Positions 5,629-41,181 of a stretch of 64,000 bases of DNA are shown here, in pieces. The stretch is taken from assembly GCA_004297205.1 (NCBI GenBank), contig SCUL01000002.1, positions 77,156 through 141,155 on the forward strand. The letters are read 5' to 3'. The position numbers and the translations under genes are program-made. The stretch comes from Patescibacteria group bacterium (GTDB lineage: Bacteria; Patescibacteriota; Patescibacteriia; 2-12-FULL-57-11). Each line of letters opens with the position of its first letter. Positions within the stretch are counted from its first letter, which is position 1. Under the pieces are notes generated by a model. That model saw nothing but the letters and a program-made list of their open reading frames with translations. It was not told where the DNA came from and searched no databases.

Positions 5629-6111
5629 TCAGATGCGGCGCGCGCCCGGCGGGCGGCAGCCGTTATGCGGGATCGGCGTCACGTCCTTGATGGTGGTGAC
5701 GGTCAAACCGTTGGCGTTCAGGGCGCGGATGGCGCCTTCGCGGCCGGCACCGATGCCCTTCACGAACACCGCGACCTCGCGCAGACCGACGTCCTTCAAC
5801 TTGTCGCAGACGTCCTTCACGGTGATGGAGGCGGCGTACGGTGTGGCCTTCTTCGGACCGGTGAAACCCATCTTCCCGGAGGACGACCAACCGAGCACGT
5901 TGCCGTGTGGGTCGGTCAGCGTGATGATCGTGTTGTTGTAGGTCGCCTGGACGTAGACGCGGCCGATCGGAACCGTGCGCACCGCTTTCTTCTTGCGGGC
6001 GCGGACGACGCCTTTCTTTCCGCCGGAGGCGAATCCGCCTTTGGCGGAGGCGCCGCCCTCATCGGCCTTCGCGTCGGCGGCGGGTGGAGTGATCACATCA
6101 AGCTCTTCCAT
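5629..6111 (-). CDS. rpsK: 30S ribosomal protein S11 with N-terminal extension containing the in-frame 33-nt palindromic element
   Basis: ...VPIGRVYVQATYNNTIITLTDPHGNVLGWSSSGKMGFTGPKKATPYAA is the S11 core. The extension holds EGGASAKGGFASGGKKG, encoded by the GGCGAATCCGCC element at 6018-6050. Confidence 0.95.
   Translation of the reverse strand: MEELDVITPPAADAKADEGGASAKGGFASGGKKGVVRARKKKAVRTVPIGRVYVQATYNNTIITLTDPHGNVLGWSSSGKMGFTGPKKATPYAASITVKDVCDKLKDVGLREVAVFVKGIGAGREGAIRALNANGLTVTTIKDVTPIPHNGCRPPGARRI
6018..6050. repeat. copy of the 33-nt GGCGGATCCGCC-core palindromic element inside the rpsK N-terminal extension
   Basis: CGCCGGAGGCGAATCCGCCTTTGGCGGAG is 32/33 identical to the mnmA copy. 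Confidence 0.75.
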
Positions 6112-16434: not shown

Positions 16435-17556
16435 TCAGCCACCGATGACTCCCCCGCCCAGGCAGACGTCGCCGTCATAAAAGACGGCGGCCTGGCCGGA
16501 CGTGATGGCGCGCACCGGCGTCGAGAAGCGGACGCGCAACATGTCTCCCACCGCTGTGACTTCGGCGGCCACGATCTCCTGACGATGGCGGATGCGCACG
16601 CCAAGGCGTGCCGGCAGTGCCGGCGTCGCGGCAATCCAACGCGCGCCGCCGACCTGCATCTGATCGGAAAACAAGTCCTGCTCGTTCCGGGAGACGACCA
16701 CGCGACGTGACGCGGGGTCCGTCGCGACGACGTACCACGGCTCGCCGCCGCCTCCGCCGGAGGCGGATCCGCCTTTGGCGGAGATGCCGAGCCCGTGCCG
16801 CTGGCCGACGGTGAAGCGGTGGACGCCGCCGTGCCGCCCGAGCACCGCACTGTCCACGGAGACGATCTCGCCGGGCGCGTCGGGAATGCGCTGGCGCAGA
16901 AAATCCGGCAGCGCCACTTTGCCGACGAAGCAGATGCCCATCGACTCTTCCTTCTCGGCCGTCGGCAGACCACGGCGACGCGCTTCATCCCGGACCTGCG
17001 GCTTGGTGAGATGACCGATCGGAAACAGCGTCTGCGCCAGGAGCTTCTGCGGCAGACGGCACAAAAAATAGGTCTGATCTTTTTCCGCATCGGCAGCCTG
17101 AAGCAGCAGGCTCTCCCCTTCCGCACCTGCCCTGGAAGGGTGCCGCACCTGCGCGTAGTGTCCGGTGGCGATCCAGGCACACCCCTGGCGCTTCGCTTCC
17201 GCGGCCAGCGCCGGAAACTTCACGAATTCATTGCAACGCACGTCCGGATTCGGGGTGCGGCCGGCGGCATATTCGGCATACAGCGGCTCCACGACCGCGG
17301 CGCGGTAGACCTCTTCGGCATCGACCGTAACGAGCGGGATGCCGAGTTTGGCGGCCACGGCCAGCGCGTCACGCCGTTCGCTGCGCCAGGCGCAGGCGCC
17401 GCTCTCGTCCTTGGTGTCCGACCAGTTCTTCAAAAAACAACCGACCACGTCATTGCCCTGCTCGAGGAGCAACGCCGCTGCCAACGACGAATCCACCCCG
17501 CCGGACATGCCGACGAGGACGCGCCGTTCGCTGATGGGTCGCGTGGCCGTTTCCAT
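16435..17556 (-). CDS. mnmA: tRNA-specific 2-thiouridylase MnmA, with an in-frame Gly/Ser-rich insertion encoded by the 33-nt palindromic element
   Basis: PP-loop VLVGMSGGVDSS and catalytic Cys residues. The insertion ...[21 protein letters not shown]... is at 16751-16783. Start ATG 17556 (METATRPISERRVLVG). Confidence 0.9.
   Translation of the reverse strand: METATRPISERRVLVGMSGGVDSSLAAALLLEQGNDVVGCFLKNWSDTKDESGACAWRSERRDALAVAAKLGIPLVTVDAEEVYRAAVVEPLYAEYAAGRTPNPDVRCNEFVKFPALAAEAKRQGCAWIATGHYAQVRHPSRAGAEGESLLLQAADAEKDQTYFLCRLPQKLLAQTLFPIGHLTKPQVRDEARRRGLPTAEKEESMGICFVGKVALPDFLRQRIPDAPGEIVSVDSAVLGRHGGVHRFTVGQRHGLGISAKGGSASGGGGGEPWYVVATDPASRRVVVSRNEQDLFSDQMQVGGARWIAATPALPARLGVRIRHRQEIVAAEVTAVGDMLRVRFSTPVRAITSGQAAVFYDGDVCLGGGVIGG
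16751..16783. repeat. 33-nt GC-rich near-palindromic element CCTCCGCCGGAGGCGGATCCGCCTTTGGCGGAG, in-frame inside mnmA
   Basis: Near-identical copies lie at 6018-6050 (rpsK, one mismatch) and 39034-39065 (secA, inverted orientation). Confidence 0.8.
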
Positions 17557-27350: not shown

Positions 27351-27589
27351 AACGGGCGGAATGGTACCCGAGCCGAACCGGGAGGCGCAAGGGTCGTCCC
27401 GGCCGTCCCCTTGCCTTCCTCCGGGGTCTGTGGGCATGCTGGACCCAAGACCCCCACCGCGTGCGGCGTTGCACCCCCCTCTTGGCAACGCCGACGTCGC
27501 GGTGGCGGTCCCCCCTTAGCGGGACGTTGGTCGCTCGGACGTCCTTTACCCGTGTGTATCGTCCGCCCCCCCAGACGATGCCGGGCGCT

Positions 27590-27646
27590 GCGACCACCGC
27601 CAGTTCCAGGGTTCTCTCTTCCTCTGGTCCAGGCGGTCTTTTTTTC
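27590..27646 (+). terminator. candidate rho-independent terminator inside the 365-nt secD/lipoprotein divergent intergenic region
   Basis: An imperfect long hairpin (ACCGCCAG...CCTCTGGTCCAGGCGGT) is followed by CTTTTTTT. There is no upstream + strand CDS, which suggests an ncRNA end. Confidence 0.35.
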
Positions 27647-27715
27647 CTGCTTTCCATGCTTGGCAAAGTATCATGCGTATCGATACCATTCACGTGTAAC
27701 GCATGACGTAATCTT

Positions 27716-28219
27716 ATGAAAAAATATCTGCCGATCTTGGCCGCGGTCCTGTTGCTCGGTGCGGGCTGCGCGTCTCCCGCAACTCCGTCCACGAACGCGC
27801 CGCGGGCGGCAGCCGATCCGGAGCCGCGGTGCGATGCCCTCTTGACCCTCGCTGAAGCGCAGCAGGTTTCCGGTCTTGCCTATGCCGTGCGTGATGCGAA
27901 AGCAACGACGATGGGCACAACCGTCGTGACCACCTGCACTTTTTACACCAACGAACGGACCACGGGCATCAAGCCCTTTACCATCCTGACGCGCTCCGCC
28001 GCATCGACTGTGGAAGTCAATGAAATCTTCGAAGCGAGCAAAACCGCCACCTATACCGATGGACAGCCGATCTCCGGCCTCGGCGACCAGGCGCTGTGGT
28101 CTCCGTCTTTCGGCCAGCTGTCGGTTCTGCGAGGTCAAACGTGGTTGATTGTGACTGCAACCAATAACCGGGTTCTTGCAACGAAGATCGCCGAGGCCCT
28201 CGCCCCGAAGCTCAAGTAA
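27716..28219 (+). CDS. lipoprotein, hypothetical (167 aa)
   Basis: MKKYLPILAAVLLLGAGC signal peptide with a canonical lipobox. TTGGCA-18-TACCAT promoter-like sequence at about 27659-27690. Confidence 0.7.
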   Translation: MKKYLPILAAVLLLGAGCASPATPSTNAPRAAADPEPRCDALLTLAEAQQVSGLAYAVRDAKATTMGTTVVTTCTFYTNERTTGIKPFTILTRSAASTVEVNEIFEASKTATYTDGQPISGLGDQALWSPSFGQLSVLRGQTWLIVTATNNRVLATKIAEALAPKLK

Positions 28220-28844
28220 GCGGCACGTCTCCCGCGACTTCTCCAAAAAAATCCTGGTGACGTGACTCGACGTGAGCCGCAAGTTCTTCGAGGTAGGCGA
28301 GCAGTTCTGGTTGACCGGCCATCTTGCTGCGCTTCAGGGCAAGCACCTCCTCGAACGCCAGTCCGTGTTTCTTCCAGATGCGACCGCCGTCCGCGGTCGT
28401 CGCAAGCATCGGTTCCAACTTGTCGAGCGCGTAAATGAAGCGGCTTTCCGGATCCTCGCGGCGCTCGTAGGCGGCAATGGCGTCGTGGAGGTCGGGAAAT
28501 TCTGAAAACTCCCTGCGCAGCCGTTCCGCCGCTGCGTGTTCACTCGCCGATTTCTCGGCCCGGGCCTTGGCGTCCTTCGTGTAGGCGAAAACGTCGCCGG
28601 CGTAAACCTCAACAAGGTCATGAATAAGCGCGTACCGCAACACCTTGTCCTGATCCAGCGGCAGCTTCAATGTCGAGACCGTATACCACGCCAACATGGC
28701 CAGTGAATAGCTGTGCTCGACGTCGTTTTCCAAACGCTCCTCGCCGATGATGAAAATCTCGCGGATCACGCGCCGGTAGGCGGTGAGCATCGCATAGAAT
28801 CGCTGGAGCTCGGGGAGGCCGGCCATACGTTCAGGATGTGACAT
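28212..28844 (-). CDS. HD-domain phosphohydrolase (YfbR-like 5'-deoxynucleotidase family)
   Basis: H...HD motif (...VEHSYSLAMLAWY...ALIHDLVEVYAGD...). The track ORF is 5' extended across the PPC gene. Start is Met at 28844, or 28826. Confidence 0.7.
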   Translation of the reverse strand: MSHPERMAGLPELQRFYAMLTAYRRVIREIFIIGEERLENDVEHSYSLAMLAWYTVSTLKLPLDQDKVLRYALIHDLVEVYAGDVFAYTKDAKARAEKSASEHAAAERLRREFSEFPDLHDAIAAYERREDPESRFIYALDKLEPMLATTADGGRIWKKHGLAFEEVLALKRSKMAGQPELLAYLEELAAHVESRHQDFFGEVAGDVPLT

Positions 28845-29235
28845 GGAATTCGGGAAAACCCGTTGCCTCGTCATGAATCCGACGATACACGACGTCGTCG
28901 AAGATGCCGAACACAACCTCGGCCGTGGTATCCACAACGCAGCCGTCCTTGAGGTGGCCGCCGATAACGGCACCGTCCTTGTCCGAAAGGCTGACGTGGA
29001 TGTGACAGCCGTCCGCGGCGATCGTTCCGGTTCCGGAAACGATTTCGAGCGGTCCCGCGATCGTACGGACGATTTGCGCGTCCGGCGTGGCGCCGGCCAT
29101 CCGCAAAACCGCCGTGCGCACCCCGCCGACCAGGGACAACAACACGCCCGCGCCGATCCTTCGTTCACGGGCGATGCGTTCGATCTCTTCCTTCAGCAGT
29201 TGTCCCGGCCGGAGCCGGAAGGAAATCTGTTTCAT
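28831..29235 (-). CDS. PPC domain protein (DUF296; PCC/AT-hook-associated fold)
   Basis: 134 aa with G-rich beta-strand pattern ...GAGVLLSLVGGVRTAVLR...GPLEIVSGTGTIA...HIHVSL... Its ATG overlaps the TGA of upstream DUF1653 (ATGA). Confidence 0.7.
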   Translation of the reverse strand: MKQISFRLRPGQLLKEEIERIARERRIGAGVLLSLVGGVRTAVLRMAGATPDAQIVRTIAGPLEIVSGTGTIAADGCHIHVSLSDKDGAVIGGHLKDGCVVDTTAEVVFGIFDDVVYRRIHDEATGFPEFHVTS

Positions 29236-29498
29236 ACCTCACGCACCCAGGCGAACCGCGGGCCTTTGTACTCCCCCACTTCGACGTGCTCGAGGAACAT
29301 GCCGAGCGGTCGGATCCAATACAGACCCGGATCGATCAACGACTAGTACACCACGAACTCCTGCGCCGGGTCCTCGCTGCTGCGCCCGACGAACCGCGCA
29401 TGATACACGCCGCCTTTGTAGTGGCGGTAGATGCCGGGGCGGAACCGTTGCGCGGCGTCGGAGAGCGGCGGGAGATCGGGGGACATGCCGATGCTCAT
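29232..29498 (-). pseudogene. DUF1653 family gene interrupted by an in-frame TAG (amber) at 29343-29345
   Basis: Frame from ATG 29498 reads MSIGMSPDLPPLSDAAQRFRPGIYRHYKGGVYHARFVGRSSEDPAQEFVVY*SLIDPGLYWIRPLGMFLEHVEVGEYKGPRFAWVREV*. Both halves match DUF1653 (YRHYKGG.Y ... Y..RPL.MFLE). Both ends are coupled to neighbours by ATGA overlaps. Confidence 0.6.
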
Positions 29499-30493
29499 CT
29501 CAGTGCATTAATCCTATCCCTGCTCATTTCTATCTGTTTTTCTCTTTCTTTCTCGTTTCTTTCCCAGATAGCAGACAATGTTTCCTTCACGTGACCGATG
29601 TTTTGACGCTGCACGACGTTACTGATCACGGAACCGGACGGATATTCAACAAAAACCGTCAAGGTATTGAACACCACCTGCCCGGATCTTGGGGTGAACA
29701 ATTGTTTATGAAGCTCGGGCGAACGCATGTGTACTCGTTCCTCAACCGACCGAAACGCGGCTTTCAGGTCTTCCTGATTCCCTAAAATGTCGAGGTGTTT
29801 CACGGCTTTGCCCGTCAATGCCGTCCCTGAAACCATCGGCAGAATACGGCGTTCAAGCGCCCAGTCAATTACCTCACCGGCATCATCGGCGTTGTCTTTG
29901 TACACCATGATGGAAACACCCATTCTCGTGAATCCGTTTTTATCCGGTTTGTTGAATCCGGCATCGATCATGGCACGTATCGCCTCATCTCTTTTTTCCG
30001 CATATTTCTTAACACCGGAGATTCTGTTCTCTTTTTCGGGGTCAAAACTATTCACTTTCACGACGAAGGAAACGGGATACTCCCTTAATTTTTCAATTGC
30101 GGTCGCATTCAATAGAGCGCCGTTCGTAAATACCGTGACATGCAGATCCAGCTCTCTGGCTTTTTCGAGAAGCGGCCAAATCTCTTTATTTGAAAAGGGC
30201 TCGCCGTGGCCCGCCAACAACAGATTCGTAATCCCGAGATTCTTTGCTTCCTCCAACAATTCAACGCTTTTTGCGACATCAACCGATTGTTGCGTCTTTT
30301 CTCTGTACGCATCGGTAAAACAATACACGCAGTTCAAATTACACTTCTCTCGTGGAAAGGAAATACTCAGCTGCAGGGGCCTATCGCGTTCCCAGGCTCG
30401 TTCAATGTCCTCGATGTCAAAATCAATTCCTTTCAGCTTGATGGGCTCGGGTTTCTCTACCTCCGGACTCGGAAAATATTCTCCAGATCTCAT
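29495..30493 (-). CDS. radical SAM protein (CxxxCxxC; function unknown)
   Basis: CNLNCVYCF cluster and GHGEPF glycine-rich SAM motif. 332 aa. No SPASM or twitch Cys cluster seen. Local GC is clearly lower than surrounding genes. Confidence 0.75.
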   Translation of the reverse strand: MRSGEYFPSPEVEKPEPIKLKGIDFDIEDIERAWERDRPLQLSISFPREKCNLNCVYCFTDAYREKTQQSVDVAKSVELLEEAKNLGITNLLLAGHGEPFSNKEIWPLLEKARELDLHVTVFTNGALLNATAIEKLREYPVSFVVKVNSFDPEKENRISGVKKYAEKRDEAIRAMIDAGFNKPDKNGFTRMGVSIMVYKDNADDAGEVIDWALERRILPMVSGTALTGKAVKHLDILGNQEDLKAAFRSVEERVHMRSPELHKQLFTPRSGQVVFNTLTVFVEYPSGSVISNVVQRQNIGHVKETLSAIWERNEKEREKQIEMSRDRINALR

Positions 30494-30518
30494 ATGCCAT
30501 CATCTTACACTACGAGTT

Positions 30519-31445
30519 TCATACCGGAATCTTTACCTTGGCAAGCTGCGACTCACGGATCGACAGGCCGAGGAACAACGCGAGCAGCAGGACGGTGTTG
30601 AGCGGCGCGACCCAGAAGCCGAACTCGCGTCCGAAACTTTCCAGCACCATCAGGCCGCCAAGCATGCCGATGGAATACATGGCGCCGTTCTTGAGATAGG
30701 CGAACTTGGAAATGACATCGATGCCGCGCACCGTCACCTCGCGGACGACGAGCGCGCCGATGCCGTTGCCGATCAGGATGAGCACCACGGACAGCGTGAA
30801 GGCGAAGGCGCCGATCACGCCGTCGATGGAGAACGACGCGTCGAGCACTTCGAGGTACAGCAGTTTGCTCCAGGCGCTCAGATGCGCGGTGTGCAGTTTC
30901 TTCTCCGTCTCCTCGGCGTTGCGCCGGAAACCGTCGGTCACGAAGAAGGCCGTGGCGCCGATGGAGGCGGACAGCGCCAGGATGGGATTCTCGCGCACCG
31001 CCAGGGCGATGACCTTGGTGATGAAAATCGAGGCGAAGGCGTAGAACCAGACGCTCTGGCGGTGGATGAAGTGCTCGACAAAGAAGGCGTACTTCTTCTC
31101 CTCCATGAACAGCCAGCCGAGAAAAACGAAGACGAGGTAGACGCCGCCGGCCAGCAGCAACAACGGCTTGGAATGCTCAAGCGCCGCACTGACCTTGTCC
31201 GGTTCCGTGAACACCAGACGCATCAGCTCCGGCAGCGGGATGTTGGTATTGGCAAGCCAGACAATGAGGAACGGCAGCACGCCGCGCACCACGAACACGG
31301 CCAAGAGCAGCCCCCAGAACAGGAAAAACTTCCGGTACTTCTCCGGCAGGGTCTTCAGGACGTGGGCGTTGACGATGGCGTTGTCGACCGAGCTGATGAC
31401 CTCGAAGACGACCAGCCCGAAGATGACGACGAGGGATTGCAGCAT
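30519..31445 (-). CDS. DUF475 family integral membrane protein
   Basis: MLQSLVVIFGLVVFEVISSVDNAIV... N-terminus and ...SFSIDGVIGAFAFT... are typical of DUF475. About 8 TM helices. Confidence 0.65.
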   Translation of the reverse strand: MLQSLVVIFGLVVFEVISSVDNAIVNAHVLKTLPEKYRKFFLFWGLLLAVFVVRGVLPFLIVWLANTNIPLPELMRLVFTEPDKVSAALEHSKPLLLLAGGVYLVFVFLGWLFMEEKKYAFFVEHFIHRQSVWFYAFASIFITKVIALAVRENPILALSASIGATAFFVTDGFRRNAEETEKKLHTAHLSAWSKLLYLEVLDASFSIDGVIGAFAFTLSVVLILIGNGIGALVVREVTVRGIDVISKFAYLKNGAMYSIGMLGGLMVLESFGREFGFWVAPLNTVLLLALFLGLSIRESQLAKVKIPV

Positions 31446-31446
31446 A

Positions 31447-32022
31447 TCAGCCTTGTGCCTTCAGGATCTCGTCGAGCAGCACCGGCAGCTCGGTCACGCC
31501 ATCGTCCCCTGAGAAATGCCCCATCTCTTCGAGGATGATCGTTTTGGCACCGAGCTTATTACGCATCGCGACTTCGTTCTCCAACGGCACGTAGCGGTCG
31601 TTGTCGGAAAAAATCGCCTCGATCCGGCCTGCGGCGCGTTTTGCACGCTCGGTGTCGAGCGGCGTCCGCAACCACTCCGCGGCGATCGGCCGTTCTTCAT
31701 CGCTGTCCGCATTCGTCAGGTGGTTGAGGAACCCCGCCACGAGATAGGCGCCGCCGACGCGTTGATCGTCCGAAAGGTCGGCGAGGTACCGCAAGATTGC
31801 CTGACAGCCCATGCTGTGCCCGACCAAGATTGTCTCCTCGTCCGCCGTGCCGACAACGGTCGCAAGAAACGGCACCCAGGTGCCGATGCGCGGCGTGTCG
31901 GTCTCCGGCATCTCCGGTGCTTCCACGGCGAACCCGCGGGATTCGAGTTCCCGCTTCAACCACGGGAACCAGCCATGCTCAGGTGTTCCGCTCCAGCCGT
32001 GGATCAGGAAAGCGCGTTTCAT
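31447..32022 (-). CDS. alpha/beta hydrolase, RBBP9/YdeN-like serine hydrolase family
   Basis: About 190 aa, MKRAFLIHGWSGTPEHGWFPWL... with a GHSMG nucleophile motif, matching the family. Confidence 0.75.
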   Translation of the reverse strand: MKRAFLIHGWSGTPEHGWFPWLKRELESRGFAVEAPEMPETDTPRIGTWVPFLATVVGTADEETILVGHSMGCQAILRYLADLSDDQRVGGAYLVAGFLNHLTNADSDEERPIAAEWLRTPLDTERAKRAAGRIEAIFSDNDRYVPLENEVAMRNKLGAKTIILEEMGHFSGDDGVTELPVLLDEILKAQG

Positions 32023-32052
32023 ATGGCTTTCAGAATGACAGAAACGCGGAAA

Positions 32053-32081
32053 GAAAAAAAGACGCGTGCCTCCTGCACGCG
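32053..32081 (-). terminator. rho-independent terminator ending the SET/ASCH/HD operon
   Basis: On the minus strand: CGCGTGCAGGAGGCACGCG hairpin followed by TCTTTTTTTCTTT. Confidence 0.55.
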
Positions 32082-32124
32082 CGACGCCCGCCCGGCGACG
32101 GTCAGCGGCGCTGCGGAGCGCCCC

Positions 32125-32355
32125 TCACCTCTGGCGCAGGCGGTGCGACGTCTGCAGCTTCACGGAGCGTTTCGTCGACGGCGGAAGCCGCACCCGTTTC
32201 TCCGGTAGGTCGGTCTCGCACCGCGTGACCCGCTCGCGTGCCAGCTTCTTGCGCGCCCGCTGCGCCGCCAACGAACCGACGACGAAATCACGAACGTTCA
32301 TCTTCACCTCTTCTCTAAAACTAGCACACGGACGCGTGCCGTCAACACGATGCAA
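32125..32355 (-). CDS. small basic hypothetical protein (possible; may instead be 3' UTR)
   Basis: 76-aa ORF (plausible start MNVRDF...) between the SET gene and the terminator. No RBS or homology. Confidence 0.25.
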   Translation of the reverse strand: MHRVDGTRPCASFREEVKMNVRDFVVGSLAAQRARKKLARERVTRCETDLPEKRVRLPPSTKRSVKLQTSHRLRQR

Positions 32356-32378
32356 TACGGCGACGCCTGCCAGCCCCG

Positions 32379-32756
32379 TCAGGGCCTCCCCTGTTCGAAC
32401 TCTCCATAATCTTGCAGGAGCTCCTCTCCGGCCTCGATGTCTCTGACGGCGACAAGCCGATACTCGGGCGCACCGGCGTCAACCGTGATGTTCCCGACGT
32501 CCGCATGGTTGCAGAAGCGGATGTCATCGAACGCTAGATGCCAGGTGCCATCGTTGAAGTATCCGTAATGACGGATCTGTTTCTGGGAAAAAACATCCAG
32601 CTTCTGGAAATCGGCATCGGAAATATCAACGTCCAAATTCGAACTCATTTTGTACACCAACGAACCCTTGGCGACGCGTTGATCGGCAAAAAGACCGATG
32701 CCGTGTACGGGACTTTTCTCCAGTCGTGTTTTGACGAAAAGCATATGAGAGATCAC
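32379..32756 (-). CDS. SET domain protein (putative protein-lysine methyltransferase), 125 aa
   Basis: GIGLFA...KGSLV N-terminal SET motif. ...RFCNHADVGNITV... (the NHSCxPN equivalent). ...VAVRDIEAGEELLQDYGE... is post-SET-like. ATG overlaps the ASCH TGA. Confidence 0.65.
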   Translation of the reverse strand: MISHMLFVKTRLEKSPVHGIGLFADQRVAKGSLVYKMSSNLDVDISDADFQKLDVFSQKQIRHYGYFNDGTWHLAFDDIRFCNHADVGNITVDAGAPEYRLVAVRDIEAGEELLQDYGEFEQGRP

Positions 32757-33082
32757 GGCCCCCGCAACTCGAAGGTGATCATCTTCACGGGCGTGTCCAA
32801 CGTCACCCGGTCGCCGTAATACTTCTTGTATGCCTCGAACATCTTTTTGCTGCTTTCAAACCGCTCATGCCCGACAAAATCCGCATCCGTGATCCCGCCG
32901 AGGCGCTTCTCCTTGATGGCCGTGATACGCGCCGACGCAAACTCTTCTCCGGTGGACTTATTCACAAGCGAAAGCTCATCGCCGACACGGAGATCCTTGT
33001 CATCAAACATCCGCCAGGTGGATTTCTTCTCACCAGACAGCACCAACGGCACGAGATGGTCGAACAACTTGAGGGTCTTCAT
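32753..33082 (-). CDS. ASCH domain protein (PUA-like fold), 109 aa
   Basis: MKTLKLFDHLVPLVLSGEKKSTWR... is the typical ASCH N-terminus. ATG 33082 overlaps the HD gene TGA (ATGA). Confidence 0.7.
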   Translation of the reverse strand: MKTLKLFDHLVPLVLSGEKKSTWRMFDDKDLRVGDELSLVNKSTGEEFASARITAIKEKRLGGITDADFVGHERFESSKKMFEAYKKYYGDRVTLDTPVKMITFELRGP

Positions 33083-33699
33083 TCTTTTTTCCAGGCGCGC
33101 GTTTCCTGCGCGCGGTCGACGAACCATTGGTCGGAGGCGTCGAACCACCAGGCATCCGGGTGCGTGGCGAGCATCCGCTCCCCCAGTTTCCTGCCGGCGT
33201 CGGTCTTCAGCCGTTTCACGGCAATGGCGATCCACTCGGTGGCTTTGATGTTCCCTTTCACCTCCTCGGCGCGCAGTGTGGCGATCCACTCCAGGTTGTC
33301 GGCATCCTTGACGATCTTCGCTTCCAGGGTCTCCTTGGCCTGTTCTTCCGTGTACAGGTCGGCGATCTCCTTCCCAAAGGGAACGCTCGCCGCAATGTCG
33401 GCGACGGCGTGCCCTTCGGCAAGGCGACCGTACCGCTGATGGATGTAGTTCAGGTCCGACGTCCTGCCTTCGCCCAAGTCATGCACGAGCGCCATGAGCA
33501 CGACCTTGTTCTTGTCGACGCGCGGCTCGAGGTGGCACAGCGCGTAGGCGATGAGCGCCGTGTGGAAGAGGTGCTCGGCCACCGACTGGCTGCCGCTGCC
33601 CAAAAACCACAACCCCGAGCGCGGCGTCTTGCTGTGGATGCTCGTTTCGTACACGAAGTTCGTGATCTGATCAAGCGGGTCTTTTTTTGCGTCAGGCAT
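33079..33699 (-). CDS. HD-domain phosphohydrolase (YfbR-like 5'-nucleotidase family)
   Basis: ...AEHLFHTALIAYAL...LMALVHDLGEGRTSD... carries the H..HD..D motifs. 206 aa. Confidence 0.75.
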   Translation of the reverse strand: MPDAKKDPLDQITNFVYETSIHSKTPRSGLWFLGSGSQSVAEHLFHTALIAYALCHLEPRVDKNKVVLMALVHDLGEGRTSDLNYIHQRYGRLAEGHAVADIAASVPFGKEIADLYTEEQAKETLEAKIVKDADNLEWIATLRAEEVKGNIKATEWIAIAVKRLKTDAGRKLGERMLATHPDAWWFDASDQWFVDRAQETRAWKKE

Positions 33700-33736
33700 A
33701 AATCATTTGTCATTCTGAGGGGCAGCGAAGAATCCT

Positions 33737-34411
33737 TCAAGCTGGATCCTGGAAGTGCTGCTGCCTCTTTCCCATATCGAGCGCCCAGATCTCTTTTTGC
33801 TCGCGGTAAATCACGTACAACAAACCGACGAATGCCGCGCCCAGCGTATACGGCAGGGCGAACACGAGGTTCGTTTTTCCAAAGGCGATCAGCAGCGTAT
33901 TGATCAGGATGAACAGCAGGCGGACTTCGGTCGGACCGATGCCGAGATGCGAGATGCGGAATTTGTTCGTCGCGGCCATCACCAAATAGGCGTTGACCAT
34001 GTAGCCGGCAAAGAGCGCGAACACGAAAAAGAAGACCCACTTGGATTTGTCGGGCAACAGGATCATGTACCCCACCATCAACGCGGCCAGAAAAAAGTAA
34101 TCGAGCAGGTGGTCCATGTAGTAGCCCCAGCGGACGAGTCCGGTCTTGCGCAGGCGGCCGACCGCGCCGTCCAAAGAGTCGGTCAGCCACTGCAGGGCGA
34201 TCATCGCCGACATGCCCCACAGCCAGCGGATGTCGTCCACCGCCAAAAAGCTGAAAAGCACGAGCAGTCCGCAAATCGGGATGGTCGCGAGCGTCAGGTG
34301 GTACGTTTCGACGGGCTTGGGAACTTTCGTCACCGCCCATTCCACAAAACGCCGCTCCAATGGATGCAGCAGCGACGCGCCTACTTTCTTATCTCCGGAA
34401 AAAGTTTCCAT
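33737..34411 (-). CDS. CDP-alcohol phosphatidyltransferase family protein
   Basis: D-G-x2-A-R-x8-G-x3-D-x3-D motif (DSLDGAVGRLRKTGLVRWGYYMDHLLD). 5-6 TM helices. Confidence 0.8.
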   Translation of the reverse strand: METFSGDKKVGASLLHPLERRFVEWAVTKVPKPVETYHLTLATIPICGLLVLFSFLAVDDIRWLWGMSAMIALQWLTDSLDGAVGRLRKTGLVRWGYYMDHLLDYFFLAALMVGYMILLPDKSKWVFFFVFALFAGYMVNAYLVMAATNKFRISHLGIGPTEVRLLFILINTLLIAFGKTNLVFALPYTLGAAFVGLLYVIYREQKEIWALDMGKRQQHFQDPA

Positions 34412-34417
34412 TGGTCG

Positions 34418-34804
34418 TTACGACAACCCCTTCTCCCGGTATTCCTTCTTGATCTGCCAATACATGCTCTCCGTGCCCGGCTCCTCCGTCCGGTTGCGCA
34501 TCAGCTCCGCCGGATACTTCTTGGCCACGTGCGCCAGCTTTTCACGAACGATCTGTTCGGTGTCGAGATTCAGCAGCACGGACATCTCCAATGCGTAGAT
34601 CAGCACGTCAGCAAGCTCTTTTTTGATCTGCTGCACCTTCTCCGGATTCTTGCGCACGTCTTCGAGCGACAGGTTTTCCCACTGGAACAATTCCAACAAC
34701 TCCGCGCCTTCGATCATGATCGACTTGGCGATATCAACCGGACGCAGGGTGTCCCAACGTCGGTCCTTGAGGTGTTGATAAACGTCTTTCTCGAGGTCCT
34801 TCAT
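34418..34804 (-). CDS. MazG-like nucleotide pyrophosphohydrolase (all-alpha NTP-PPase)
   Basis: EExxE-type metal motifs (EGAELLELF; ELADVLIYALE). 128 aa. Confidence 0.75.
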   Translation of the reverse strand: MKDLEKDVYQHLKDRRWDTLRPVDIAKSIMIEGAELLELFQWENLSLEDVRKNPEKVQQIKKELADVLIYALEMSVLLNLDTEQIVREKLAHVAKKYPAELMRNRTEEPGTESMYWQIKKEYREKGLS

Positions 34805-34962
34805 ACGGGATTCAGGGTGCCACCACGGGGTCTTGACAGCAAGCTGGTTCTATGACAGGCGCAGGCCGGGTGATTCAATACACCTGCTCGCGGGAGGGTT
34901 GGCATCCTTCCGGCTCCCATCGGGGCTACCATACCCTCTTTGGGCGACCGAGCGTACCCGCC

Positions 34963-35029
34963 ACCCGTCGGATTCAGACGCTGTGTTCACGCATTGCGTC
35001 TGATGCAGCTCCGACGGGTTCTTTTATTT
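34963..35029 (+). terminator. nested-hairpin rho-independent terminator on the + strand (also abutting the stop of the convergent 35024 gene)
   Basis: Outer stem ACCCGTCGG...CCGACGGGT and inner stem TCAGACGC...GCGTCTGA, followed by TCTTTTATTTCC. There is no + strand CDS upstream. Confidence 0.45.
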
Positions 35030-35605
35030 CCGCAGCTCGCGGTCGAATGCAAGAAAGTCCTTAAGGATTTCCGCGGTGGGTTTCTCCGCATCGAGGACTT
35101 TGGACTTCAAACCGTACCCCGTGGCGCAGCGGTTGAACTCGGCTTCGTACTTTGCGATGTAGTCGTCGAGGATGGCGCGGCGCTCCTCCGGCGTGGCTCC
35201 GTCCGGAAACAGCGCACGGTCGCGCTTGTGCTGGTCGGCTTCGATGCGGCGCAGCACGGTGTCCGTCGAAATACGCAGCAGCAAGATGGCGTCGAATCCG
35301 GCGATGCCGCTTCCGGCGATGGGAAAGACGTCACCGCGGACGATGTTGAGGTAATGGCCGTCGAATACAACGTCACCCGGGCGAGAGGTGATGTTCGTCA
35401 GCATTTCCTGAAACTTCCGGTCCGCATCGTCATTGTGGCTCAGTTTACGCAACGCGTCGTAATCACCGGGGATACCGAGGTAGTCCATGAAGGCGTGCGA
35501 CCCCTTGATGATTTCGAAACCAGGTGCCGCTTCTTTGATCGCATGCAGTAACGTCGTCTTCCCCGCCCCGTTGATGCCGCCGAGGTAGTACTTCATCATT
35601 GTCAT
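35024..35605 (-). CDS. P-loop NTPase / nucleotide-kinase-like protein
   Basis: Walker A GGINGAGKTT and lid-like R-rich segment. 193 aa. ATG overlaps the ppa stop. Confidence 0.6.
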   Translation of the reverse strand: MTMMKYYLGGINGAGKTTLLHAIKEAAPGFEIIKGSHAFMDYLGIPGDYDALRKLSHNDDADRKFQEMLTNITSRPGDVVFDGHYLNIVRGDVFPIAGSGIAGFDAILLLRISTDTVLRRIEADQHKRDRALFPDGATPEERRAILDDYIAKYEAEFNRCATGYGLKSKVLDAEKPTAEILKDFLAFDRELRK

Positions 35606-36060
35606 TCCCGCGGAGGCGGGGATCCAGAAATATCTGTGGACTGCTGCACGAGAGCAACTGCTTCATCCTTGCCGAAGAATTGACCAACCACGAGCTTTTT
35701 CCCTGGCAGGTGATCAAAAACGTGTGCAATGAAATTGCGAAGCTCGGTCTGAACACGCTCGTCAACAATGGGAGATTCTCCAGGAAGCGTTGCGAGTATC
35801 TTTGGATCGTTCTCACCCGTGTCGTCCATCTCGAACATGCCGATCGGTTCGACATCGATTGTCTCCCCGCTCTTGAGCGGCTTCGCCGTCAACACGAAGC
35901 AGTCGAGATTGTCTCCGTCGCCGCTCGTGGTGCCGATCACGAAGCCGTAGGCGTAGGGATAGGCCCGTGAGACCTCGACACTCTTACGGAACTCCAACGT
36001 CTTCTCATTGAAGATGTTCTTAGTCCGCGATCCGCGCTCGTTTTCGATGAAAACCTTCAT
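35602..36060 (-). CDS. ppa: inorganic pyrophosphatase (family I, short)
   Basis: ...YPYAYGFVIGTTSGDGDNLDCFVL... matches the YPxNYGFIPxT...DGDPLDVLV signature. Confidence 0.75.
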   Translation of the reverse strand: MKVFIENERGSRTKNIFNEKTLEFRKSVEVSRAYPYAYGFVIGTTSGDGDNLDCFVLTAKPLKSGETIDVEPIGMFEMDDTGENDPKILATLPGESPIVDERVQTELRNFIAHVFDHLPGKKLVVGQFFGKDEAVALVQQSTDISGSPPPRE

Positions 36061-36061
36061 G
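36032..36061. repeat. direct repeat copy A (covers the ppa start codon): CCGCGCTCGTTTTCGATGAAAACCTTCATG
   Basis: 28/30 identical to copy B at 37267-37296. Confidence 0.6.
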
Positions 36062-36503
36062 AAGGATCCTTCACTGCCGTTCGGGATGACAGGTAGGTGC
36101 GCACTCCTTCAAGAATGCCGCTGGTGAAATACTTCTCCAGATTCGAGGGGTCGACACGTAGCCACGCAGAACCTTCGTGTTCATGACTGAGCATCGGTTC
36201 ACCGCTTTCGTAATCACCGATGAAAAACACGTAGAGGATGGCGTCGCCATTTTTGGTCACATGGCGACCGATTGCCACAGGCGCAGGATGGAGACGATAC
36301 CGCACCTCACCGATCTCTTCCTGCACTTCGCGATTCAAGACGTCATGGAACGGCGCAGCGAGCTCATCGATATGGATGCGCCCGCCCGGAAAATCGTAGA
36401 AACCCGAATACTCACCGGTGTTTCTGGCAAGCAGGCCGAGCACCTCGTCGCCGCGGCGCAAGATGAGTTTCAACGAGACCCAATATTTTGCTTTCTCGGC
36501 CAT
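36057..36503 (-). CDS. Nudix hydrolase
   Basis: Nudix box GGRIHIDELAAPFHDVLNREVQEEIGE. True start ATG 36503 (MAEKAKYW...); the track ORF is 5' extended. Confidence 0.8.
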   Translation of the reverse strand: MAEKAKYWVSLKLILRRGDEVLGLLARNTGEYSGFYDFPGGRIHIDELAAPFHDVLNREVQEEIGEVRYRLHPAPVAIGRHVTKNGDAILYVFFIGDYESGEPMLSHEHEGSAWLRVDPSNLEKYFTSGILEGVRTYLSSRTAVKDPS

Positions 36504-36622
36504 AGATGTCAGGAATACTACCTGGAGGTGCGGGGAATTGCACCCCGGGCAGCCATCCTGGCAAGGAAAGCGCCGCGCCTGCCACCCCCAGGTTCCTTCA
36601 TCGTAGCCCTGAACCGGGACAT

Positions 36623-36651
36623 TGACCGGCCACACACTTTTCTGCTATTGT
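36623..36651 (+). promoter_or_regulatory. sigma70-like promoter (TTGACC-17-TATTGT) driving a short + strand transcript with no ORF
   Basis: -35 at 36623-36628 and -10 at 36646-36651 in an otherwise gene-free 225-nt gap. Confidence 0.35.
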
Positions 36652-36657
36652 CAAGAG

Positions 36658-36720
36658 GTCCTGGCAAGGATTGCACCGTACGCGAGCACAAACCGCCCTA
36701 CATGGGGGCGGTTTGTTTTT
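36658..36720 (+). ncRNA. candidate small RNA of about 60 nt (promoter plus intrinsic terminator, no ORF)
   Basis: The predicted TSS is about 6 nt downstream of the -10. The transcript ggtcctggcaaggattgcaccgtacgcgagcac ends in the AAACCGCCCtacatGGGGGCGGTTT-GTTTTT terminator. It contains motifs (TCCTGGCAAGGA, TTGCACC) that repeat 60-100 nt upstream. Confidence 0.3.
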
Positions 36721-36721
36721 G
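36688..36721 (+). terminator. rho-independent terminator
   Basis: AAACCGCCC-tacat-GGGGGCGGTTT followed by GTTTTTG. Confidence 0.6.
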
Positions 36722-36730
36722 AAGACAGAT

Positions 36731-37243
36731 TTAGGCCTCTATTGCCGTTTTTACACGTTCGACAACCTCGTCAGGTGAAAGGTCTTCCACGTCGATGATA
36801 GTTGCATGCGGTCGTTTTGCCTTCAGCTCATTCATCTCGTTCCAAAAACGTTCGCACTTCTCCGGCGTCAATAGACCATCTTCTCTGTATCCGCGATCAG
36901 CCGCGCGTTTCAAAACAACATCCTTGCTTGCCCAAAGAATGACTTCCGTCACATGCGCGTTCCGCTGCTTGGCGAGCGCGATCATGCGATCAAGTCGCGT
37001 CTCATCGAACATCATTTTTTCCACGATTACATCATGACCGGTCTGCATGTAGGCGTCGATCATCGCCAGCACGAGCAAAAAAGAAAACCGGTTACTTTCA
37101 TCTGCGTGTTCTCTGTATCCACTGATCTGTCTGCGAATGGCATCGATGTCAACAAGAAGCGAAAGCGGCATCGTCTGATGCAGAGCGGATGCCACGGTAC
37201 TCTTTCCTACGCCACAAGGCCCGTTGATGATCACGAGATTCAT
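36731..37243 (-). CDS. P-loop kinase-like protein (chloramphenicol-phosphotransferase / AAA_33-like fold)
   Basis: MNLVIINGPCGVGKSTVASAL Walker A at the extreme N-terminus. 170 aa. Lower GC (about 50%). Confidence 0.65.
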   Translation of the reverse strand: MNLVIINGPCGVGKSTVASALHQTMPLSLLVDIDAIRRQISGYREHADESNRFSFLLVLAMIDAYMQTGHDVIVEKMMFDETRLDRMIALAKQRNAHVTEVILWASKDVVLKRAADRGYREDGLLTPEKCERFWNEMNELKAKRPHATIIDVEDLSPDEVVERVKTAIEA

Positions 37244-37266
37244 ATAGCCCCAGCTTCTATCACGAC

Positions 37267-37296
37267 CCGCGTTCTTTTTCGATGAAAACCTTCATG
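37267..37296. repeat. direct repeat copy B: CCGCGTTCTTTTTCGATGAAAACCTTCATG, encoding a remnant MKVFIEKERGS* mini-ORF (37260..37295, minus)
   Basis: Duplicates the first 11 codons of ppa. Together with copy A it brackets the 1.2-kb Nudix / sRNA / P-loop kinase segment. Confidence 0.6.
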
Positions 37297-37324
37297 TCTT
37301 TCTGGACTCCCACGGGAATGACCG

Positions 37325-37951
37325 TTACCTGTTCGGCAAAGGAATGACTGTCGCACCGTTGCGATAGGCCTTCATGAACCGTTCCACGGGAACGCGGACG
37401 GAGGGTCGAGGAGGCAGTCCAGGGTCGTGGAGCAGAAGTTCGCCGCCATCGACGCCGTACAGGAGGACCGAGTGACCAATGCCTCTTTCCCTTTCATGCA
37501 GCACGCCAGAATCCACGAAGGCGATCACATAATGCGCTGCAAGAATATCTTTCCAATCGCTTGCGGAAGGATTCCGACGCTCCACCAGCTGCGCCTCGAC
37601 CATCCGCTGAGCGTCGCGCATTTCTTTTTCAAAACCCGGACTTGCATGCGCCTCCTGGTCGTCGACCCATGCCACATCACCGTGAAAGTAGCTCAGCAGG
37701 TAGGCACGTCCTTCACGGCAAAAGCGACCGTAATCGAAATCCGTCCAATAGCGCGTGCCGGGAAACAGCGTGTTCAATTCAATGATGCTCCGCGCAGGCC
37801 ACGTGTACAGGTCTTTCTGGAATCCCGTGATTGCGTCGGCCTCCGCCCAGGATATCGGGCGACCGATCGTTTCACCGAACATCCGAATGCAGGCCTGCAA
37901 ACAATGCAGGTCGTCCGACAGATTCCCGATGAAGATTGGTTCACGCGCCAT
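37325..37951 (-). CDS. hypothetical protein, possible papain-like (C39-like) cysteine peptidase fold
   Basis: Cys near the N-terminus (LHCLQAC), later GHSVLLYG and HDP, consistent with a Cys-His-Asp triad order. Weak assignment. Lower GC. Confidence 0.4.
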   Translation of the reverse strand: MAREPIFIGNLSDDLHCLQACIRMFGETIGRPISWAEADAITGFQKDLYTWPARSIIELNTLFPGTRYWTDFDYGRFCREGRAYLLSYFHGDVAWVDDQEAHASPGFEKEMRDAQRMVEAQLVERRNPSASDWKDILAAHYVIAFVDSGVLHERERGIGHSVLLYGVDGGELLLHDPGLPPRPSVRVPVERFMKAYRNGATVIPLPNR

Positions 37952-38006
37952 GGCACGTTTTCAGGTCAATCTGGATTCCCGCCTATTGGTGGGCAGGCAC
38001 TGGCAT

Positions 38007-38381
38007 TCAAAATGACCTTGTTGGGTCATAGTCCTGACCACCGACGACAATATCACCAAAACCCTTCTCTTTCGCCCACTTCACAATGCGTACACGACGC
38101 GGATCGTCCGGCTCTTCAAAGCCGTTTGTGAATGAAATGATTAGACCGCGGTAAGGATCGTACTTGTACCTGATTCCCTGCGACCCATCCCAAACCATCG
38201 GCGTAGCATGGCGCTGGGCGATTTCCGAGGTCATCATTTCGTAAGTCACCAAATCGTCACACACCCGAAATCCTTCTTGACGAAGAAATTCGACAATCGC
38301 CACAAGCCTATCGAAATCGGCGCGCTGCTTCTGCTCGCGTGCATCGATTGCTTCTGGATTCTGTCCAGACCGCTCAGACAT
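38007..38381 (-). CDS. hypothetical protein (124 aa)
   Basis: Start ATG 38381 (MSERSGQ...) lies 1 nt after the secA stop. No family recognised. Confidence 0.45.
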   Translation of the reverse strand: MSERSGQNPEAIDAREQKQRADFDRLVAIVEFLRQEGFRVCDDLVTYEMMTSEIAQRHATPMVWDGSQGIRYKYDPYRGLIISFTNGFEEPDDPRRVRIVKWAKEKGFGDIVVGGQDYDPTRSF

Positions 38382-38382
38382 A

Positions 38383-41181
<2,799 letters not shown>

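Follow-up and report, generated by a model that had tools for sequence, protein, structure and literature searches.

In the 64-kb stretch of DNA analysed here (hereafter the window), which belongs to a metagenome-assembled genome (MAG) of Patescibacteria, the beginning of ppa, the gene of a family I inorganic pyrophosphatase whose product is identical to EPO33_01840, is present twice. The two copies form a direct repeat of 34 nucleotides (nt) at 36028-36061 and 37263-37296, 31/34 identical and 1235 nt apart, and each copy, read on the minus strand, consists of 1 nt upstream, the ATG and 10 further codons. The downstream copy starts the intact gene, while the upstream copy is, judging from its sequence, a pseudogene stub: 11 ppa codons still attached to the repetitive extragenic palindromic (REP) element that precedes ppa in a related locus, L002. 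On balance we interpret the repeat as the scar of an illegitimate recombination between two layouts of a variable gene island located between secA and secD.

The duplicated start of ppa

An earlier note on this DNA had described direct repeats of about 30 bp around the ppa start; our repeat search found them and extended them to the length reported above. The translation of the second copy, proposed there as an orphan remnant of 11 codons, MKVFIEKERGS, was as claimed and is followed by two stops; the intact ppa start translates as MKVFIENERGSRT. The gene content ascribed to the bracketed segment also agreed with our annotation (an AAA_33/CPT-like kinase, a hairpin with a structured leader and a Nudix hydrolase), and the upstream gene called peptidase-like, orf208, belongs to a C39-like peptidase family. 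All the genes at the repeat locus lie on the minus strand. The features are given below in the direction of transcription, with open reading frames abbreviated as ORFs.

41244-38383, minus strand: secA
38383..38400, minus strand: true 3' end of secA, SEC-C motif ending in KKCHGA and the stop; source of the duplicate at 37956-37941
38007..38393, minus strand: orf128/150, first cassette after secA; no family match; missing from relatives
37941..37956, minus strand: duplicate of the secA 3' end, GTGCCATGGCGCGTGA, 15/16; behind the first cassette, containing the orf208 ATG
37325..37951, minus strand: orf208, member of the C39-like papain-fold peptidase family; missing from all related loci
37300..37322, minus strand: decayed REP-type element, GTCATTCCCGTGGGAGTCCAGAA, one hairpin arm gone; 4 nt upstream of the stub ATG
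37263..37296, minus strand: repeat copy 2, 1 nt and 11 codons of the truncated ppa start; 31/34 to copy 1
37295-37260, minus strand: ppa stub including its TGA, beginning 4 nt past the decayed REP
37257..37295, minus strand: stub ORF MKVFIEKERGS, then TGA and TAG; 16 nt from the end of the TGA to the kinase ATG
37244..37259, minus strand: the 16-nt spacer from stub stop to kinase ATG, matching nothing in any locus
36731..37243, minus strand: AAA_33/CPT-like P-loop kinase, 170 amino acids (aa), inherited with secA in the clade
36688..36716, minus strand: terminator-like hairpin 3' of the kinase, -19.6 kcal/mol, z -5.3
about 36515..36600, minus strand: tRNA-like structured leader upstream of the Nudix gene
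36057..36506, minus strand: Nudix hydrolase, its stop overlapping the ppa ATG (ATGA)
36028..36061, minus strand: repeat copy 1, 1 nt and the first 11 codons of intact ppa
35602..36060, minus strand: intact ppa, family I inorganic pyrophosphatase, 152 aa
35601..35629, plus strand: intact REP-type element, opposite to the genes; encodes the ppa C-terminus (SGSPPPRE and the stop) and abuts the start of the AAA_17 kinase
downstream of ppa, in order: AAA_17 kinase, MazG-like, CDP-alcohol transferase, HD, ASCH, SET, Ser-hydrolase, TerC, radical SAM, second HD
27488-24692, minus strand: SecD, SecF

The exact 21-nt core of the repeat, TTTTCGATGAAAACCTTCATG, matched only twice in the 64 kb even when up to 3 mismatches were tolerated, and no match was obtained in 100 dinucleotide shuffles. 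No third copy of the ppa-start repeat was found in the window, where only one other direct repeat of at least 26 nt at 90% identity or more exists, an unrelated 37-nt palindromic repeat. The earlier note had considered that the repeat might prove to be a widespread motif of ribosome-binding-site (RBS) regions; with two copies only in 64 kb this is ruled out, and the element that is widespread is the neighbouring REP. Both copies are also present in an independent Logan contig (L001, from SRR8426588) that is 100% identical to the window over 5,501 nt, so that the repeat is not an assembly artefact.

The two copies are homologous from the base that precedes the ATG to the end of codon 11. The sequences 5' of the two ATGs are unrelated, being a REP element for the stub and the 3' end of the Nudix gene for ppa, and for this reason a simple tandem duplication was ruled out. 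Since the upstream contexts differ, the two copies represent the starts of two ppa genes from two contexts and not the two sides of a staggered cut. Past codon 11 the stub joins unrelated sequence that leads into the kinase gene. An abrupt junction inside a gene, where homologous sequence passes into unrelated sequence and a truncated fragment is left behind, is what a recombination scar looks like.

The stub and the 15 nt upstream of it align to the REP-ppa junction of L002 (1897-1945; 49 nt, 83.7%, E 3.8e-9), and the spacing between REP and start codon, CCAGAA + 4 nt + ATG, is the same at the stub and at the L002 ppa. The stub-side REP no longer folds, whereas intact copies reach -13 to -15 kcal/mol (z -2.2 to -3.2), a decay that is expected of a dead junction.

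Related loci and the secA-secD island

About ten related loci, mostly on short contigs, were compared through context look-ups and tblastn. After its own entry, the next-best identities of the ppa protein were 81%, 79% and then 67%. A scan of genome contigs with ppa returned only relatives at most 69% identical, with unrelated contexts except for the adjacency of secA and ppa in L017 and L043, two distant genomes of the Candidate Phyla Radiation (CPR) in which ppa directly follows secA. The closest loci are reported below with the identity of their SecA protein to that of the window.

L051, secA 91.9% aa: secA - DUF6176 - REP - AAA_17 stub - kinase - REP - Ham1
L052, secA 91.1% aa: secA - orf141 - decayed secA-end copy - kinase - REP - APH
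L003, secA 83.8% aa: secA - orf137 - secA-end copy - REP - hairpin - leader - ppa - S51 ... SecD
L045, secA 80.2% aa: secA - ASCH - REP - Nudix - Ham1 ... SecD SecF
L002, secA 77.8% aa: secA - NUDIX_4 - REP - hairpin - second leader type - CYTH - Nudix remnant - REP - ppa - ASCH ... SecD
L049 and L050: further permutations of the island
L053-55, secA 59% aa: secA, 34 nt, kinase

From this comparison it is evident that the locus belongs to an island whose borders, secA and secDF, are constant and whose content and order differ in each relative (L002, L003, L045, L049, L050, L051, L052). In the window the island covers 10.9 kb (27488-38383) and holds about 16 small genes on the same strand, mostly of types involved in nucleotide house-cleaning and salvage (Nudix, ppa, two P-loop kinases, MazG-like, two HD, ASCH, SET and others). 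Its GC content is 54-58%, against a mean of 63.4% for the window. The window arrangement was found in none of the related loci, nor were both repeat copies found together in any relative, a case that the earlier note had named as pointing to an ancient fixed duplication; the two-copy state is thus lineage-specific. The genes missing from all relatives are orf150 and orf208, both to the left of the stub.

The kinase, which lies inside the bracketed segment, behaves as a vertically inherited gene. Its identity tracks that of secA, with 88.8% against 91.9% in L051 and 89.3% against 91.1% in L052; in L053 the values are 71.6% for the kinase and 59% for secA. It is located downstream of secA in four lineages, being directly adjacent only in L053-L055, while in L051 and L052 the two are separated by inserts. 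That the spacers preceding the kinase in the window, L051 and L052 are orthologous was ruled out, as homology effectively ends at the kinase ATG.

Other parts of the segment are found beside ppa elsewhere. Just upstream of ppa, L002 keeps a 67-nt remnant of the 3' end of the window Nudix gene (86.6%, E 2.7e-17; by tblastn 32 aa, E 9e-7), and in L003 a leader homologous to that of the window directly precedes ppa (87 nt, E 6.7e-9). Parts of the supposed cassette are therefore already linked to ppa in other lineages, and the L002 remnant suggests that a layout with Nudix next to ppa existed there.

A parallel stub was found in L051. There an intact REP is followed, after 4 nt, by ATGAAGTACTACCTGCGCGGCATCAATGGG..., which is the start of an AAA_17 kinase gene standing upstream of the same AAA_33/CPT-like kinase, and its stop lies 4 nt before the kinase ATG. 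This stub of 26-30 nt matches the window AAA_17 gene at 27/30 positions (0/2000 shuffles) and the window and L049 AAA_17 genes at 24/26 (E 5.8e-4). In L052 what precedes the kinase is instead the final 20 to ~42 nt of secA in a decayed copy, producing an ORF of 10 codons that overlaps the kinase ATG with its stop. Three sister lineages thus carry an ORF of 10-13 codons before the kinase, ending 0-16 nt from its ATG. The L002 segment after the REP at 752 was also examined as an older shared scar, and it was not significant (232/2000 and 108/2000 shuffles).

Copies of the 3' end of secA stand behind the first cassette in 5 of the 10 loci (the window, L003, L052, L017 and L053):

window, 37941-37956 vs 38383-38400: 15/16, behind orf150
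L003, 7708-7725: 18/18, behind orf137
L052, 792-811: 18/20, behind orf141
L017, 8454-8482: 28 nt, bracketing ppa itself
L053, 8174-8226: 51/53, at the end of a SEC-C protein

In L017 the 28-nt repeat around ppa marks a clean insertion of a single gene that separates secA from its terminator. The ppa gene of L178 has on either side a 34-nt repeat resembling a SEC-C end (31/34; 152-185 and 757-790). These recurrent end duplications indicate that fragments of neighbouring essential genes at cassette borders are general to the island and not peculiar to the ppa repeat.

The REP-type element beside the stub has the 29-nt motif GTCATTCCCGCGGA[AG]GCGGGAATCCAGAA, an imperfect palindrome that forms a hairpin, and it is present in at least 120 JGI metagenome stretches (loci L058-L177). 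Among the matches listed, it is nearly unchanged across host contigs of 31-72% GC, and an inverted partner occurs within 110 nt in 51 of the 123 distinct metagenome copies, with a median spacer of 14 nt. Such doublets are REPIN-like, REPINs being defined as in PMC3116915 and PMC3337134, although a conservation of this kind across taxa is unusual for REP/REPIN families. Copies in the clade of the window are mostly singlets, and 9 of its 11 forward copies, besides the decayed one at the stub, lie 4-5 nt before a start codon, compared with 2/124 metagenome copies having an ATG at +4 (again among the matches listed). In the window there are 1 intact and 2-3 degenerate copies, all within the island; a partial copy is located at 37969-37985 on the minus strand. 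Both in the window and in L002 and L003 the ppa gene terminates in a REP of reverse orientation, contributing the last eight codons (SGSPPPRE and the stop), which explains why the ppa product of this clade has 152 aa instead of 143-145 aa. The last 9 codons of the Nudix gene (tail 36057-36091) come similarly from half of another palindrome, matched at 27/28 positions at L002 2713-2740. A literature search on the 29-nt REP hairpin, on REP-derived peptides and on REPs in Patescibacteria returned nothing.

Concerning orf208, the protein itself has no Pfam or NCBIfam match, and 26 of 40 homologues match PF03412; C17 and H160 do not vary within the family, whose profile hits the peptidase domain of ComA (E 1e-4). 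Its closest homologue is 55% identical, in a search of 1.8 billion cluster representatives taken one per 50%-identity cluster. A SEC-C motif occurs in about 10 of 150 orf208 homologues, 9 times C-terminal and once N-terminal, and this motif could be the source of the homology to the secA end.

How the repeat may have arisen

According to the interpretation that we favour, the repeat would derive from two island layouts. The first would have been '...C39-like gene (orf208) - REP - ppa' and the second 'secA - kinase - terminator/leader - Nudix - ppa'. As far as ppa codon 11 the recombinant would follow the first layout, and from a point shortly before the kinase it would follow the second, which would leave the ppa start twice, 1.2 kb apart. 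The joint itself would be a single illegitimate event, by short homology or microhomology, in the hypervariable secA-secD island. In the scheme that we propose, linear DNA from a related strain would have been anchored in a conserved flank (secA, or ppa and what lies downstream of it), the other crossover being an ordinary homologous exchange and the illegitimate joint falling near the edge of homology. Homology-facilitated illegitimate recombination of this kind appears to be the most likely route. In Patescibacteria, at the level of the phylum, genes for competence and homologous recombination are common and exchange takes place mostly within the group (PMC12455944). The conserved position of the kinase downstream of secA favours the kinase-to-ppa part as the resident one, with orf150 - orf208 - REP - ppa stub as the incoming part.

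Pieces of the supposed parental layouts were observed, namely REP-ppa in L002 and secA directly adjacent to the kinase in L053-55. At the junction, GGGTCGTGATA resembles the secA end GGGGCGTGATA at 10/11 positions, a score reached by 45/2000 shuffles in one of several tests; this weak likeness would fit a joint placed where secA and the kinase ancestrally met. No function has to be assumed for the stub, which might at most serve as a translated upstream ORF (uORF) of 11 codons ending 16 nt before the kinase start.

It should be noted, however, that several observations weigh against a recombination between two layouts. A complete parental layout of either kind was found in none of the sampled relatives; in particular, no related locus has orf208 next to ppa, although a search dedicated to orf208-REP-ppa was not made. 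The stub is closest to the ppa of its own genome (31/34, against 29/34 for the ppa of L002 or L003), which fits an origin within the genome equally well. The microhomology at the joint is weak. Moreover, the similar lengths of the window and L051 stubs (33 and 26-30 nt), both placed after a REP and before the kinase, suggest a non-random process that generic illegitimate recombination does not predict.

The earlier note had seen in the repeats the footprint of an integration or of a duplication-mediated insertion, and part of this view is maintained, since a non-functional duplicate of the ppa start does lie at a rearrangement joint. The part that did not hold is the 1.2 kb as the inserted unit. 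An insertion of the kinase, leader and Nudix genes as one unit into the 5' end of a resident REP-ppa, whether it duplicated 33-34 nt as a target or att site or proceeded through Campbell-type integration of a circle carrying this short homology, is in our opinion unlikely. It would account for the direct repeats that flank the segment, and 34 nt is near the minimum for RecA-type recombination. It also agrees with the gene-end repeats of 28-47 nt that bracket other single-gene cassettes (L017, L178, L052) and with the position of ppa between a forward and a reverse REP in L002, because the window looks like that unit after a split: its forward REP stands beside the stub and its reverse REP at the 3' end of ppa. 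However, the kinase is syntenic with secA and behaves as vertically inherited, and the Nudix-ppa and leader-ppa links exist in other lineages. A staggered cut, in addition, does not explain why the duplication begins exactly at the ATG. Between the repeats the only genes are the kinase and the Nudix hydrolase, with no transposase or integrase, and the repeat search found no inverted repeat pairs at the ends of the 1.2-kb segment. No recombinase appeared in Pfam scans of the genes at 33.0-38.5 kb and 24.7-33.3 kb, the rest of the genome not being searched. The empty site predicted in the earlier note, with the peptidase gene directly beside ppa in relatives, was not found among the related loci compared either.

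The base composition leads to the same conclusion. The segment had been described as richer in AT than its surroundings, and its 53.4% GC does place it among the 2% of 1.2-kb windows with the least GC, but the sequences directly beside it are equally low. By gene, the GC content is 50.3% for the kinase, 54.7% for Nudix, 53.8% for ppa, 52.8% for orf150 and 57.1% for orf208, and the stretch from 28 to 38.4 kb remains at 54-58% throughout. A foreign low-GC cassette was therefore ruled out, since the low GC is shared by ppa and by the DNA to the left of the segment, and the kinase gene has about 50% GC (46-51%) in all lineages.

We also consider unlikely a duplication followed by a deletion, in which a full ppa gene would have stood behind the REP and another behind Nudix before the upstream one was cut to 11 codons. 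Such a history would fit the greater similarity of the stub to the ppa of its own genome, with an exact run of 20-21 nt, and the behaviour of ppa as a movable single-gene unit flanked by direct repeats in L017 and L178. It requires, on the other hand, an extra step, two ppa genes were seen in no relative, and the L051 stub, which derives from a different gene and lies in the same position, would require both steps to have taken place a second time.

It is also conceivable, if rather unlikely, that the secA-secD island is a true array of cassettes whose constant reshuffling is due to a dedicated joining process not described so far. ORF-sized modules of nucleotide-housekeeping genes would join at REPs 4 nt before start codons and near copies of the secA or SEC-C 3' end, leaving 16-53-nt stubs that derive from essential genes nearby; the window ppa stub and the L051 AAA_17 stub would then be products of one mechanism, and ppa a mobile single-gene cassette homing to the secA end, as in L017 and L178.

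A directed process anchored at the REP, joining ORF-sized modules about 30-38 nt past it and leaving stubs of the gene that follows, seems very unlikely to us. The agent could be a recombinase or transposase recognizing the hairpin, or replication stalling at a protein-bound REP. Two independent stubs that start 4 nt past a REP, measure 26-33 nt and precede the same kinase are in accordance with this idea, as is the placement of clade REPs before start codons reported in the previous section. The examples are only two, however, the REP of the window stub is decayed, and the third candidate stub, that of L002, was not significant; no recombinase or gene of the REP-associated tyrosine transposase (RAYT) type was identified, a genome-wide search not having been made.

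Finally, a chance match, a common regulatory or RBS motif or a metagenome assembly chimera is extremely improbable: the ppa N-terminus is conserved across CPR (MKVFIENE) and the genome is a MAG, but no match is expected by chance, no other gene start carries one of the two copies, two assemblies are identical across 5.5 kb, and the longest exact run, 21 nt, is below typical assembly k-mers and thus would give no mis-join.

Known systems and neighbouring elements

Homology-facilitated illegitimate recombination was reportedly described in the naturally transformable Acinetobacter and Streptococcus (de Vries and Wackernagel 2002; Prudhomme et al. 2002). The ppa repeat would resemble it in having one homologous anchor with an illegitimate joint near the edge of homology; a joint within the anchor leaves a short duplication, and no genes of mobile elements are needed. 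Here the process is read from sequence alone, and the microhomology is weak as said above. The term is in use in PMC6382021.

Islands generated by integrases share with the locus the direct repeats of tens of bases, derived from the terminus of an essential gene, that bracket DNA, and the arrays separated by repeats that follow repeated insertions, comparable with the secA-end copies reported here. As in such islands, ppa is intact and its first 11 codons are repeated upstream. Unlike them, the bracketed DNA neither contains nor adjoins an integrase gene, each unit is one small gene, and the ppa repeat is at the 5' end of the gene, with the start codon as its boundary. Target-site duplications of transposons and insertion sequences (IS) measure about 2-15 bp and do not depend on gene boundaries, whereas our repeat has 34 nt and is set at the ppa ATG; terminal inverted repeats and a transposase were not found in the segment, nor an empty site in the related loci.

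Integron cassette arrays and the pdif modules of Acinetobacter plasmids are arrays of small genes in the same orientation with short structured repeats between them. The island is similar in that single small genes of the same orientation, with structured repeats between them, differ between close relatives. It differs because no intI/attI or Xer-type site was identified and the island has no integrase, because the hairpin lies 5' of the genes, 4 nt before their starts, and not at the 3' ends of cassettes, and because the boundaries contain pieces of adjacent genes, and neither integron nor Xer recombination generates these.

REP sequences were reportedly found at the join points of duplications (Shyamala et al. 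1990). The element beside the stub is like REPs and REPINs in being a 29-nt imperfect palindrome with a hairpin fold, in having copies arranged as inverted doublets and in its position at the borders of rearranged segments. Unlike the described families, which are lineage-specific, it is found on contigs of 31-72% GC, and within the clade of the window it stands mostly as a singlet, 4 nt ahead of a start codon. The ppa repeat is not itself a REP but a piece of coding sequence next to one. Taken in this comparison, the repeat works like a scar of illegitimate recombination and does not behave as a transposon, integrase-island or integron product; what is less ordinary is its context, that is, the cassette-like island, the recurrent gene-end duplications and a REP shared across taxa at start codons.

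The repeat alone is a neutral scar, and its value lies in being a dated footprint and a concrete joint from which the route of recombination may be read. An essential gene, ppa, sits where single genes are swapped between relatives in an uncultured bacterium with a reduced genome. The stub, its parallel in L051 and the secA-end copies mark secA-secD as a recombination hot spot for nucleotide-sanitising genes, which is relevant to metabolic remodelling in CPR bacteria, dependent as they are on scavenging nucleotides and taking up DNA. Annotators should not mistake the 11-codon ORF or the REP-derived tails of the ppa and Nudix genes for functional novelties.

The hairpin 3' of the kinase is conserved with compensatory changes in L003, L049 and L050. 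Copies of the Nudix leader precede ppa in L003 (7892-7976), CYTH in L049 (1508-1594 and 3830-3915 being the two copies of that locus) and a Ham1-like gene in L050 (1508-1581). The leader measures about 75-85 nt and is closed by a stem of 11 bp; it further comprises a variable arm and a T-arm-like hairpin, GGGGTGCAATTCCCC, that is invariant, and its consensus fold has 27 pairs, 10 of them with compensatory changes. No Rfam family was found at gathering score in the whole window; at a relaxed threshold the leader gave only a sub-threshold match to the tRNA-like mascRNA-menRNA (E 0.046), and ARAGORN calls no tRNA there. It is conceivable that the leader serves as a processing signal or is a cis-regulatory RNA of a new kind.

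A second structured leader of about 170 nt is located upstream of the MazG-like gene (window 34806-35022, minus strand) and recurs upstream of CYTH in L002 (~890-1060) and of DUF1653 in L049 (4352-4522); its consensus fold has 42 predicted pairs and no Rfam match. The unrelated 37-nt palindromic repeat, TCCGCCGGAGGCGAATCCGCCTTTGGCGGAGGCGCCG, occurs at 6019-6055, 16753-16789 and 39034-39070, its copies being 92% identical except for one of 78% within the secA coding region, which is reminiscent of in-frame insertions of palindromic elements.

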